Below, piece after piece: positions 36,408-39,655 of a stretch of 64,000 nt of DNA. The position numbers were made by a program, and so were the translations under genes. This stretch comes from a phage. The notes beneath the pieces are model-generated. The model was given only the letters and a program-made list of their open reading frames with translations, did no database searches and was not told the origin of the DNA. The stretch lies in the sequence record PZ386971.1. One strand, 5' to 3'. Position 1 is the stretch's first letter, and each line of letters begins with the position of its first letter.

Positions 36408-36437
36408 ATAAAAAGAAAGCCGGATAGGATATCCGGC
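36408..36437 (-). terminator. intrinsic terminator ending the tRNA cluster transcript
   Basis: Perfect 8-bp stem gccggata/tatccggc, 3-nt loop, then TTTCTTTTT on the minus strand. Confidence 0.6.
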
Positions 36438-36655
36438 TATACCACATCGATGGGTTGGGTTGAAAGACTACACGCTTACACTGGTACTACCCTATGGGAG
36501 AGCGCGTCAGGAGTCGAACCTGAAGTCGTCGACGTAGAGAAAGCTATTTGCATTTCACTATCCTCGCCGCGATTTTCTTAACTTCCTAAACACCCCGATT
36601 ACGAGAGAGTCGACATGCACATCTTCTAACTCTTCAGGAAGTCACGCCCGTAATT

Positions 36656-36744
36656 TGGCGGAAGGTGAAGGATTCGAACCTTCGGGGGCTAAAAGCCCCA
36701 CTCGATTAGCAGTCGAGTCCCTTAAACCTCTCGGGCAACCTTCC
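36656..36744 (-). tRNA. tRNA-Ser (anticodon GCU), class II with long variable arm
   Basis: Hand-folded cloverleaf: acceptor GGAAGGT/ACCTTCC, anticodon loop CTGCTAA, T-arm GAAGG-TTCGAAT-CCTTC, encoded CCA. Confidence 0.75.
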
Positions 36745-36964
36745 AATTTGGACGGGCTTCACACCCGATTGAGCATTTGATCTGCTGTAGCCCAACTCCC
36801 CGCGCTTCTCAGCGCCGATTGGTTAACTGGCGACCAGTGCCTTCTGGTTCGATCTCCTGGAACTTTACAGGCTTTGCGCCCGACCATTTCTGGAAGTTGG
36901 GGCATCGTTTCCGATGTGGAGTCACCCCATTTTATACACAGCTGGCTGCAACGCTTACTGTGTT

Positions 36965-37048
36965 TGGTGTGAGTGGATGGATTCGAACCACCGCGCTGTT
37001 ACGGGGAGATTTACAGTCTCCTGCATTCGACCGCTCTGCCACACTCAC
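36965..37048 (-). tRNA. tRNA-Tyr (anticodon GUA), class II
   Basis: Acceptor GTGAGTG/CACTCAC, anticodon loop CTGTAAA, T-loop GGTTCGAATCC, long variable arm, CCA encoded. Confidence 0.7.
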
Positions 37049-37305
37049 ATTTGGTCTGCCGCTGCGTGCTGGGCCACGCTCGAGGACATCGGCCATCCTT
37101 CCTCAGCTAATCCACGCAGCGGTAGATTTGTATCAGAGTGTCCGGTGTAGCAACCCGTGAGGTGCGCACTACTGTAGCCTCTACACTCTGAATTTGGTGG
37201 GCGTTACTATCGTCGTCTTCGGATTCCGTTCGGCTATTGGACAGAGGCTTGGAGCTTGTCGGTCGCGTACTTTATGCCTATTCACTTTCGTTCACACCCA
37301 TTGTC

Positions 37306-37381
37306 TGGCGACGATGGCAGGACTTGAACCTGCGACATACGGTTTAACAGACCGCCGTTCTACCGACTGAACTACATCGTC
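37306..37381 (-). tRNA. tRNA-Asn (anticodon GUU)
   Basis: 76 nt; acceptor GACGATG/CATCGTC, anticodon loop CTGTTAA, T-arm GCAGG-TTCAAGT-CCTGC, CCA encoded. Confidence 0.75.
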
Positions 37382-37552
37382 TTGCAAATCACTATACCAT
37401 ATAAAGTTTATTGAACAAACATTTATTTTACAACAAACTGTATTGGCGGGGTCTGAGGCTTTTCACCTCACCTGCTGGGTTTGGCCGCCCAGCCGTTCTC
37501 TATGAGGATTCACTGTCCGGACAGCTATCCATTAAACTATCGCCCCTCAATA

Positions 37553-37629
37553 TGGTGATCCTGATTGGGTTTGAACCAATGACCAATGAATTATGAGTTC
37601 ACTGCTCTAACCGACTGAGCTACAGGACC
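37553..37629 (-). tRNA. tRNA with CAU anticodon (elongator Met or Ile-lysidine type)
   Basis: 77 nt; acceptor GGTCCTG/CAGGATC with G1-C72 pair, anticodon loop CTCATAA, T-arm ATTGG-TTCAAAC-CCAAT, CCA encoded. Confidence 0.7.
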
Positions 37630-39450
37630 AAATTATTGTGTGACCAACCAAGGACTGTCAACCCTTTATCCCGTTTGTGCATGATCAGTTCATACAGGCC
37701 TCTTTGTGCTGCCTCACGGCATGCGCTTCTGTTGGTCATTGGCTTACACTGTGGCCTCACAACAGGCGTTTATTTTTCCAGGGCTTTCCACTTACAAGTC
37801 TTAACCAGACCGGGATACGGGCTTGTAAGATCGGGTTGGACACAACTTTGAGGACACTGACGACGTATACGAGTCACCCATAACAGATATTCGGATGCCA
37901 GTGTCCTCAAAGTTGCAACCAATGTCGCAACTCGCAGCTTCCATACAGAAGCAACTTGTCCTCTAACGCTCGGACCAAACGAGGCTGGCTGGTTGATTCA
38001 GAGCCGCTGGTTGCTCCAGCAAGCATGGGTTGATAGCCCGGCAACATAGAATCACCCAAAGATGAAGAACATTCATGACTCACATCACACCACGAATGGC
38101 CTGAAAGAGAATCGAACTCTTTAAATACTCTTCATTTTGTGAACTTGAGAATACTACGCCTGTCTCGGGTTTCCCCTTAGTTCGGCCTCCCAGTCCTCGC
38201 CGCGCCGGGTAGCTAACCCTGATGGCTCGTCTGCTACTGAGTTCTTCTTGGTGCCCACCAGTGTCCGGAATGTGTAGACATCGCAATCTGCAAGGCATGG
38301 TCTATTTCACCCAATGCTCTCTCAAGTTCACAAATCGAAGTGCCCTGACTCAACAGTATGGCCCAATATGCTGTTATCGTCCACCGGATTGGCCGCCCAA
38401 TTTGTAGATCAACCTTTGGGTTTAAGATAAATTGTCAAGGCACTTCGATTTGTGTGCCCTTCACCTGCCAGGGATCAGGGCTGATGGCAAGACTTCGCTC
38501 ACATCTTTCAAGATACTCGTGAGAATATCCTCAAAGATGTGGAGCCGTTTTAGGGAGTCGAACCCAAATGCTCGGCCAGCGCTGACCTTACATCCCATCT
38601 GACTTAGGCAACCCACCTCTGCTTACTCAGGAGCTTATCCCCTTTGGACAGTCAGATATAACGGCATTGTCGACGGGAGCTTATTAATCACACCCTCCCG
38701 TCTATTGTTAGTGCGCCGAATTTGTTGATGAGGAATCGGAAGACCTCACTGACTTATAGGCTATTACGCCGCCATCAGAACTTCGGAATCATTAGCAGTT
38801 ATTTGCTTGGTCAGTTTCTAAAACCCGCAAAGTCACGCACAACGAAAACGAAAACCTGTTTGAGTCCTAAACGTACCTGTCTTGGTCTCACAACACTATG
38901 AGTGGCCAGGACTCAAACAGCTTGCCGTTCAGTGGGTTAACTATACTTTGTAACCCGTTATTGATAAAACCTTTTATTTTTGTTGGCGAGGGCGTCACCA
39001 TCGATTTACCGGAACTTACGCATCCGGCCTCGCCTGTTGGTGCTCCTTCGAATCCGGGAAGATTAGTAGGAACTATGAATCAAGTTAATTCGACCAACAG
39101 GAACCTTGTTGCCCTTTGACGCAACATTATGAACCCTCTGTGAAGACTCATAATGTTGTCGGCGTGATGGAGATTAGCGCCCCCGACCTCCCCTTATACG
39201 TTGGTGTCGACTTGCCAACAGGGTGCTCTCTGATTCTGAGCTAATCACGCTACAACAGGGAGTTTCGTTCTCCGACGGTCAGTGCGTCCACCGACACCAG
39301 CGAGGTTGATATTACGCCTCTATTCGTCACGGTGCCCTGAGACTGGGCTTTCCTGGTTTCGGGTTCCAACCCTACTCCCACCGCGCTATTCGCCTCGTGT
39401 TTAATACTTTACTACAGCCCAACTAATTTGAAAAGTCCTCTCCTCTTTGA
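37630..39450. other. ORF-poor, hairpin-rich region with tRNA-like fragments (possible ncRNAs or degenerate tRNAs)
   Basis: About 1.8 kb with only short overlapping ORFs; 12-16 bp perfect inverted repeats at 37848/37899, 38329/38440, 38868/38905; T-loop-like GGGTTCGACTCCC at 38552-38566. Confidence 0.3.
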
Positions 39451-39451
39451 G

Positions 39452-39598
39452 CTACACTGCCCACAGCAGTGCGGACGAACCTGAACTCAAAACCGGATGC
39501 GCCGAAGTGGGCGTCTGTTTACCGGACTGATCGGGTCGACCCAGGAGAGAGCAGGTAATCCCGATCAGAAGGATGAGGAGTAACATCATGTAAAACAT
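39452..39598 (-). CDS. small hydrophobic peptide (48 aa; signal-peptide or TM-like)
   Basis: ATG at 39598 preceded by GGGAGGG; N-terminus MFYMMLLLILLIGITC; below the ORF-track length cutoff. Confidence 0.35.
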   Translation of the reverse strand: MFYMMLLLILLIGITCSLLGRPDQSGKQTPTSAHPVLSSGSSALLWAV

Positions 39599-39655
39599 AG
39601 TGTTCCCTCCCTTCCATGCAAATAACTTTACTGCAATTATTTATTGAATAAAGCG

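Follow-up and report, generated by a model that had tools for sequence, protein, structure and literature searches.

The 64-kb window analysed here (the whole stretch of phage DNA in record PZ386971.1, 64,000 nucleotides (nt) long; positions follow its numbering, and the cluster lies on the minus strand) contains four transfer RNA (tRNA) genes separated by long spacers. We consider it likely, with a probability of about 0.75, that this cluster is a single minus-strand polycistronic stable-RNA operon, which would run from a promoter at 37661-37632 to a terminator at 36438-36408 and encode structured RNAs in addition to the four tRNAs. The tRNA cluster itself is already known, since the same tRNAs are annotated in near-identical genomes; the novelty lies in what the gaps and the neighbouring region contain.

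The cluster region is 98.5% identical to that of Escherichia phage AV101 (Ackermannviridae, Aglimvirinae), and Shigella phage Ag3 and Kuttervirus phages such as Det7 share about 92% nucleotide identity with it; judging from its sequence, the phage is an Agtrevirus-like member of the Ackermannviridae. The records of AV101 (OQ973471), Det7 (KP797973) and Ag3 (FJ373894) agree with the window in the identity and order of the four tRNAs, except that in Ag3 a tRNA-Ser(UGA) replaces the tRNA with the CAU anticodon. In these records, the spacers are left blank or given spurious hypothetical proteins.

The tRNA genes and the ends of the proposed operon

The initial annotation, made from the sequence by eye, described four minus-strand tRNA genes with encoded CCA ends. 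In the whole window, ARAGORN predicts four tRNA genes and no more; they lie on the minus strand, at these loci and with the anticodons that had been assigned, and the Rfam tRNA family RF00005 matches the same four with 56-75.8 bits (gathering score 29; E = 2e-9 to 8e-15). No further Rfam family exceeds its gathering score anywhere in the window. In the direction of transcription, the genes encode a tRNA with a CAU anticodon (37553-37629; 70.6 bits), tRNA-Asn (GUU) (37306-37381; 75.8 bits; discriminator base G73), tRNA-Tyr (GUA) (36965-37048; 57.3 bits; long variable arm, A73) and tRNA-Ser (GCU) (36656-36744; 56 bits; class II, G73). All four sequences carry CCA behind the discriminator base.

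The CAU tRNA had been read as an elongator tRNA-Met or a lysidine-modified tRNA-Ile, and not as an initiator. This holds by the initiator and elongator features described in PMC1635315, as G1-C72 is paired, C11-G24 is present and the anticodon stem (GUGAA/UUCAU) lacks the GGG/CCC pairs, and the assignment can be narrowed to tRNA-Ile2. The aligned sequence is 78.9% identical to E. coli tRNA-Ile(CAU) versus 67.5% to metT/metU, and the E. coli matches listed for it are all annotated as tRNA-Ile. It has C4-G69, C5-G68, G27-U43, U44 and A57, as in Ile2; the E. coli lysidine synthetase TilS needs C4-G69 and C5-G68, the elongator tRNA-Met having U4-A69 and A5-U68 instead (PMC1635315). The phage tRNA differs from E. 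coli tRNA-Ile2 (ileX/ileY) in having G2-U71 and U3-A70 where the latter has G2-C71 and C3-G70. It is therefore most likely a tRNA-Ile2, predicted to be a lysidine-modified AUA decoder: the host TilS would add the lysidine, and the tRNA would then read the rare AUA codon. Such an identity would explain why GenBank records of relatives call this tRNA Met in some cases and Ile in others.

A sigma-70-type promoter detected by a promoter scan (TTGACA-18 nt-AATAAT, 11/12 consensus positions; 37632-37661, minus strand) ends 2 nt before the first tRNA. The promoter block GGGTTGACAGTCCTTGGTTGG..CACAATAA is kept in Agtrevirus, Kuttervirus and Limestonevirus loci, and the gene behind this shared promoter varies: it is the CAU tRNA, a tRNA-Ser-UGA or the spacer module that we call M1. 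In a Kuttervirus locus (L007) and in Dickeya phage phiDP23.1, for instance, M1 stands straight behind the conserved promoter, as seen by eye from matched promoter strings. A weak promoter-like site read by eye just before tRNA-Asn (TTGTTC-16 nt-TATAGT; 37391-37418, minus strand) falls under the scan threshold and is seen in only some relatives; it may be an internal promoter.

At the other end of the cluster, the terminator scan confirms the strong intrinsic terminator that had been noted: AGCCGGAUA-UCC-UAUCCGGCU followed by UUCUUUUUAU (36408-36438, minus strand), that is, a 9-bp stem at 36438-36418 with 5 GC pairs, and then the T tract TTCTTTTTAT, which ends at 36408. It was said to lie just downstream of the tRNAs, but it is in fact 218 nt past tRNA-Ser, and a 154-nt tRNA-like RNA intervenes. 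Of 21 relatives searched with up to 12 substitutions allowed, only AV101 has this terminator, in identical form, and phage Menlow (Taipeivirus) has its own annotated terminator behind its cluster. The gaps between the tRNAs measure 171, 257 and 220 nt, so that the range of 200-260 nt first given for them is correct for the last two but not for the first.

Structured RNAs between and behind the tRNA genes

It had been supposed that the gaps hold further tRNAs missed by eye. No canonical tRNA is found there, either by ARAGORN with introns allowed or with a lowered threshold, or by Rfam to E = 10; a very relaxed ARAGORN threshold yields only implausible calls with "introns" of 60-2300 nt. What the gaps contain instead are tRNA-like and other structured RNAs, which we divided into six modules (M1, A, E1, E2, S3 and TLE). 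None of these matches RF00005 or any other relevant Rfam family to E = 10. At least three non-tRNA structured RNAs are well supported (E1, E2 and TLE), and two or three others less so (M1, A and S3).

E1 (37133-37191, minus strand) is a three-way-junction RNA, whose structure is derived from covariation among 17 distinct sequences. In the window, P1 is formed by UCAGAGUGU/ACACUCUGA, P2 by GAGG/CCUC and P3 by CGG/CCG, the latter closing the loop GUUGCUACA. Across the 17 copies, P1 has 9 bp, P2 has 4-5 bp and a loop of 15-17 nt in which CUACAGUAG is followed by a palindrome of 6-10 nt, and P3 has 3-5 bp and a loop that ends in GCUACA. In the alignment, 95.5% of the cells are paired and 8 of the 16 pairs show compensatory changes; the covariation score is 0.369 versus 0.105 in shuffled alignments, none of 500 shuffles scores as high, and pairing falls to 22-47% when the partners are slid by 1-3 columns. 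A loop-loop contact between GUAG in L2 and CUAC in L3 is possible. We note that S3 contains, at 36775-36790 (minus strand), the sequence GGGCUACAGCAG, which is a near-copy of the E1 loop motif GGCUACAGUAG.

A covariance model of E1 (R1), which divides members (at least 27 bits) from chance matches (below 21 bits), matches the window once (80.5 bits, E = 7e-23) and finds one copy in each related locus. Homologs occur in T5-like Demerecviridae, in N4-like Schitoviridae and in environmental phages. The gene directly before E1 is tRNA-Lys in the T5-like phages; in the N4-like ones it is tRNA-Ile or encodes a tRNA-like RNA. An environmental viral contig of IMG/VR (3300047557_002645; locus L020, 936-1346) encodes a genuine permuted transfer-messenger RNA (tmRNA), recognized by Rfam with 135 and 129 bits and by ARAGORN, which reads the tag ANDEQFALAA. 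In this contig E1 lies at 1052-1108, in the loop that has to be excised, with the CCA of the acceptor piece on one side and the 5' end of the coding piece on the other, where it makes a 58-nt insertion compared to the loop of about 20 nt in the Rfam consensus of permuted tmRNA (RF04321, RF01850). In four environmental members (loci L028, L058, L060 and L124), no tRNA is predicted in the surrounding 700 nt; inspection of the flanks by eye places E1 just after promoter-like sites in L028 and L060, and in L060 also just ahead of a ribosome-binding site and an ATG.

E1 is essentially restricted to phages, because a pattern scan of bacteria and archaea (one genome per species, 185,579 species) gave 26 matches, approximately the chance level, of which one is plausible. 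The latter (L157, about 320-415, in a metagenome-assembled genome of Candidatus Sabulitectum) resembles a tRNA-Leu in which the E1 core stands in for the anticodon and variable arms; this scaffold comprises a D arm GUGGCGGAAUAGGUAGACGCG, a hairpin like a T arm and the acceptor stem ACUGGGG/CCCCAGU, is followed by a ribosome-binding site and an ATG, and is not called by ARAGORN. The 117 matches of a raw pattern scan of IMG/VR are mostly expected by chance, according to our own estimate from the 17 fixed bases of the pattern.

The position of E1 is reminiscent of that of theta ribozymes, minimal ribozymes of the hepatitis delta virus (HDV) type, which are likewise small structured RNAs immediately 3' of phage tRNAs, for which a role in 3'-trailer processing has been proposed, and which are known from gut phages of Bacteroidota and Bacillota, not from enterobacterial phages (PMC10879173). 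However, E1 matches none of the HDV-like, theta, hammerhead, twister, pistol or hatchet families of Rfam to E = 10, and its topology is not that of HDV: the outer helix of E1 encloses all the others, unlike the nested double pseudoknot of HDV (P1, P1.1, P2, P3). The literature search returned nothing relevant for the E1 core sequence.

E2 (37055-37126, minus strand) consists of a 14-bp outer helix over a 44-nt core, GAUUAGCUGAGGAAGGAUGGCCGAUGUCCUCGAGCGUGGCCCAG, and is followed by CCAAAU and tRNA-Tyr. The core is near-invariant in Ackermannviridae and recurs in N4-like Gamaleyavirus, while the sequence of the outer helix is wholly different among three lineages (the N4-like stem has 19-21 bp). 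In an alignment of 15 distinct sequences, 97.7% of the cells are paired, 12 of the 14 outer pairs show compensatory changes, and none of 500 shuffles reaches the score; slid registers are 34-44% paired. The inner helix contains one covarying pair. A GGCC:GGCC pseudoknot is invariant, and receives no support from covariation. In T5-like and N4-like phages, E1 and E2 are kept at about 80-87% identity, with helices re-paired by different sequences.

TLE (36496-36649, minus strand) is the 154-nt tRNA-like RNA right after tRNA-Ser. Its acceptor stem is formed by 7 bp (GGGCGUG/CGCGCUC), its T arm reads UCAGG-UUCGACU-CCUGA (with a UUCGAYU loop across relatives) and its tail is U-CCC(A); where a tRNA has its D and anticodon arms, TLE has two long arms. 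RNAalifold predicts 41 pairs from nine sequences, 11 of them compensatory, some of these in the acceptor stem and the T arm. The covariance model R2 scores TLE at 170.7 bits and true tRNAs weakly. The record of Det7 has a "pseudo tRNA" immediately 3' of tRNA-Ser, which is the position of TLE in the window. We considered that TLE could be a tmRNA, but ARAGORN in tmRNA mode (-m) is negative, and the sole candidate tag frame, read by eye, runs into the T arm. R2 also has a full-length match of 169 nt, at 21 bits, in the tRNA region of a T5-like IMG/VR contig (L082, 8740-8908), and T-arm-like pieces are seen by eye behind E1 in T5-like phages; there are thus hints of TLE-type RNAs in Demerecviridae.

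Regarding the other modules, M1 (37443-37546, minus strand) has a closing helix GGGG/CCCC, three hairpins inside and the end G-CCA-A. It is 85-100% conserved across genera, and RNAalifold finds 25 pairs in 11 distinct sequences, 6 of them compensatory. Module A (37195-37300, minus strand; 106 nt) has an acceptor-like stem, UGGGUGU/ACGCCCA, followed by CCA; in 16 distinct sequences, the closing stem shows one-sided, wobble-compatible changes only, and the internal hairpin varies, so that the support for module A is weaker than that for E1 or E2. S3 (36745-36964, minus strand) is a 220-nt spacer whose hairpins are conserved; it also has a long-range helix of 10 bp, CCCAACUUCC/GGGGAGUUGGG, and an end of the form hairpin-U-CCA-AAUU. 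It is 93-99% identical across genera; 2 of its 58 pairs are compensatory, most being invariant, and its single-sequence fold has z = -2.1. In Taipeivirus, E1 is joined directly to S3.

The spacers are conserved to the same degree as the tRNAs. Compared to Det7 (Kuttervirus), the identities are 100% for E1, 99% for E2, 99% for module A, 100% for M1 and 96% for S3; with Menlow they are 97%, 92%, 81%, no match and 93%, respectively. The flanking coding sequences are 75%, 83% and 95% identical to those of Det7, and 69% and 83% to those of Menlow. The cluster is 96-100% identical to its counterpart in another genus and the flanking genes 75-95%, a contrast that points to lateral exchange of this region, and by sequence comparison the cluster is a mosaic of cassettes.

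It may then be asked whether the spacers are decaying tRNA genes or recombination scars, without function and conserved as a result of recent lateral transfer of the cassette. The high identity just mentioned would fit this idea, as would the variable cassette content among relatives, the tRNA-like ends retained by M1, module A and TLE, and the open reading frames (ORFs) inserted in the cluster of some relatives. However, compensatory substitutions preserve the helices of E1, E2 and TLE, E1 and E2 persist in re-paired form in T5-like and N4-like phages, and the 44-nt core of E2 is invariant while its stem turns over completely, and we regard decay as very improbable. We give even less credence to the idea that the gaps encode small proteins. 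There are ORFs of 30-127 amino acids on both strands (including one of 127 amino acids on the plus strand at 36777-37160), and hypothetical proteins are annotated over the spacers in the GenBank records of some relatives; but S3 has indels of 1 and 2 nt among close relatives, the substitutions follow the covariation of paired helices and not third codon positions, and the best-annotated relatives, AV101 and Det7, have no coding sequence there.

A tmRNA-like module upstream of the cluster

The approximately 2 kb upstream of the tRNA promoter (37630-39655) contain no ORF of more than 73 amino acids on either strand. A tmRNA-like module lies there (38670-38935, minus strand), preceded by a promoter-like site (38940-38967, minus strand). 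It consists of a 5' hairpin (38920-38856), a U-rich stretch, a tag frame and a pseudoknot. The tag frame (38761-38796, minus strand) reads GCU AAU GAU UCC GAA GUU CUG AUG GCG GCG UAA UAG, which encodes ANDSEVLMAA followed by a double stop.

The 10-codon frame is kept with synonymous changes in Ackermannviridae, N4-like and Felix O1-like phages, the lambdoid phage HK633 (in which the module lies between PR' and the holin gene) and a 47-kb siphophage. The variants ANDDVVLMAA, ANDNTFLAVA, ANDNAYLAVA, ANEEMYLAVA and ANDNVFLAVA are found, over at least five phage groups. Like tmRNA tags, the frame has no start codon, begins with AND and ends with AA or VA and a stop. The pseudoknot covaries, with CCGA/UCGG in some phages and CCAG/CUGG in others. 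Matches to the module come up by blastn in 630 phage records; among the 40 that were listed, none has an RNA annotated at the match, 35 having no feature there and 5 a protein feature only. ARAGORN does not call the module, the Rfam family tmRNA_permuted (RF04321) gives it 20 bits versus a gathering score of 47, and no paper describing the module or its tag peptides was found in the literature searched. The module has the same tag-frame layout as permuted tmRNA (RF04321, RF01850), but no enclosing tRNA-like domain.

A second tRNA-like RNA, TLE2 (38540-38665, minus strand), follows the tmRNA-like module. It has an acceptor stem GCCGUUA/AAACGGC, then U and CCA, and a T arm UUGGG-UUCGACU-CCCUA; it carries C3-G70 and U73, not G3-U70 and A73, and closes on itself downstream of the tag. 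TLE2 is 96-100% identical in the relatives that have it, and adjoins the tmRNA-like module here but not in Det7 and Ag3. In a Felix O1-like phage, the element that occupies the position of TLE2 (L163, 824-902) does have G3-U70, A73 and CCA. We considered a one-piece tmRNA of 376 nt, formed by distal acceptor pairing (GCUGUUU/AAACGGC), but this structure conflicts with the 5' hairpin, which is supported by covariation.

In Escherichia phage PBM-3 (N4-like; L009, 125-204 and 277-447), it is E2 that forms the 5' hairpin of the tmRNA-like module, whose tag is ANDDVVLMAA. Since E2 serves there as the 5' hairpin, we regard it as a swappable domain. The "tRNA-Cys" downstream in PBM-3 has an aberrant anticodon arm with the E1 loop motif GAGGCUACAGU. 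This gene ends in UACA, and its product may be no true tRNA but a tRNA-like domain.

By eye, the region 37630-39655 shows more helices that end in CCA and an A-rich tail (near 39040 and 38985, for example), and T-loop-like GGUUCG motifs. It may be that the whole region is a longer island of stable-RNA genes.

Possible roles of the spacer RNAs and comparison with T4

Nearly every module ends with a helix, one nucleotide, CCA and AAU(U), exactly as the tRNAs do. The motif CCAAA occurs 6 times on the transcribed strand of the 1.3-kb cluster versus 1.8 expected (P about 0.01), and 5 of the 6 sites mark the end of a module or a tRNA. We propose that these junctions are where RNase P, RNase E and 3' exonucleases of the host process the transcript; the cuts would release the tRNAs together with small stable RNAs, as happens in the cluster of T4 with its species 1 and 2 RNAs.

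Two different views of E1 and E2 can be held. In a first view, the spacer modules are cis-acting punctuation, pseudo-substrates that place the cuts of RNase P and RNase E so as to give clean upstream 3' ends, and have no role after their release. Such a function in 3' processing is the main rival to the one we favour, because E1 is nearly always behind a CCA end: it starts 2-8 nt past it in all four independent contexts (the tRNA clusters of T5-like, N4-like and Ackermannviridae phages, and the excised loop of the permuted tmRNA). The CCA-AAU-type junctions of all modules point in the same direction, and theta ribozymes are a precedent for structured elements in 3' trailers (PMC10879173). On the other hand, there is one E1 and one E2 per genome despite several to more than 20 tRNAs, most tRNAs of the same clusters manage without such modules, the four environmental copies mentioned above stand apart from any called tRNA, and the strict conservation of the loops in unrelated phages exceeds what a spacer needs. 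We consider punctuation somewhat unlikely.

In a second view, E1 and E2 are autonomous RNA domains rather than mere punctuation. We favour this view because they are present in single copy, because their loops are kept across unrelated phages and because copies that stand alone are known from environmental contigs. As single-copy domains, they would act in trans or in connection with processing, and would travel as cassettes between unrelated phages, from one stable-RNA gene to another. Our tentative proposal, which we hold at slightly less than even odds, goes further: E1 and E2 would be two undescribed families of phage non-coding RNAs, carried as cassettes in the tRNA arrays and tmRNA-type genes of unrelated virulent phages (Ackermannviridae, Demerecviridae, Schitoviridae and environmental phages), with a conserved host target in tRNA or tmRNA biology, and, together with the tag module 1.1 kb upstream, the cluster would form a 3-kb "stable-RNA island" of mostly undescribed products. 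E1 and E2 could, for instance, take part in 3'-end processing, form a new small ribozyme or serve as decoys against tRNA-directed defence.

As for the tRNAs, codon counts over 47 long window ORFs (16,430 codons in total; 48.3% GC) give, per 1000 codons, 5.9 AUA (10% of Ile codons), 43 Tyr, 49.5 Asn and 19.3 AGY-Ser codons. In E. coli K-12 the values are roughly 4-5, 28, 39 and 25, respectively. The comparison with host codon usage that the initial annotation called for thus agrees with a modest role in supply where Tyr, Asn and AUA are concerned, a role that does not extend to AGY; the comparison uses approximate background figures for the host and is not decisive. The Tyr and Asn tRNAs would serve the high demand of the phage for these amino acids, and may also stand in for host tRNAs lost to anticodon nucleases.

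A stronger version of the latter idea is that the four tRNAs mainly serve counter-defence, by replacing host tRNAs cut by anticodon nucleases, and that E1 is a decoy or sponge tied to tRNA-Tyr. The modest skew in codon usage leaves room for it. Colicin E5, retron-Eco7 PtuAB, PARIS, PrrC and similar nucleases repeatedly target the tRNAs for Tyr, Asn, Lys and Ser, E1 is limited to phages, where it comes after tRNA-Lys in T5-like phages and ahead of tRNA-Tyr in Ackermannviridae and in Ea9-2, and its loops show UACA twice and GUA once. However, the decoy idea would draw on these short motifs alone, and the anticodon loops of the phage tRNAs (Tyr CUGUAAA, Asn CUGUUAA, Ser CUGCUAA) are presumably the same as those of E. 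coli, with no apparent escape mutations. All in all, we find counter-defence as the main role rather unlikely.

Several observations weigh against our reading of the cluster as an operon of tRNAs and structured RNAs. S3 and module A are almost devoid of informative covariation, and the single-sequence folding z-scores of the four spacers (0.14, -2.13, -0.19 and -2.04) are unremarkable for two of them. The near-identity of the cluster across genera could result from recent horizontal exchange, driven for example by a homing endonuclease as with SegB of T4, and not from purifying selection. The search pattern for E1 fixed the contact bases GUAG/CUAC of L2 and L3. The codon-supply signal is modest, and the host reference values are approximate background figures. 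Last, TLE could not be tied by homology to the small RNAs of T4 encoded by rnaC and rnaD, as R2 has no match on rnaC and blastn aligns only the T arm. The literature search found no Ackermannviridae transcriptome.

Phage tRNA clusters are usually reported as lists of tRNAs, and the intervening DNA is ignored. Here, folds supported by covariation are shared by virulent enterobacterial phages of three unrelated families, and are met again in a phage tmRNA precursor. They provide a comparative set of candidates that can be tested in widely used phages of the therapeutic type (Kuttervirus, Agtrevirus, T5-like and N4-like). If these RNAs do take part in tRNA or tmRNA processing or in anti-defence, the consequences would extend to phage host range and to how hundreds of genomes are annotated. 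It also reopens a 50-year-old question, that of what RNAs C and D of the T4 tRNA cluster do; their function is still unknown (PMC3014915, PMC9697503).

The T4 operon, indeed, is the known system that the present cluster most calls to mind: besides its tRNAs, it gives rise to two small stable RNAs that are not tRNAs, namely species 1 (rnaC) and species 2 (rnaD). There are differences, since the tRNAs of T4 abut and those of the window are separated by 170-260 nt of structured RNA, and E1 is absent from T4, where E1 but not E2 was searched for. The RNA of about 140 nt that rnaC encodes comes last, at the 3' end of the T4 cluster, and combines an acceptor-like stem with a canonical T arm, CCGGG-UUCGAAU-CCCGG; TLE has the same position and the same architecture, and it is in architecture only that it resembles the species 1 RNA. 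By analogy, the cluster would be a phage tRNA operon that carries accessory stable RNAs, as that of T4 does.

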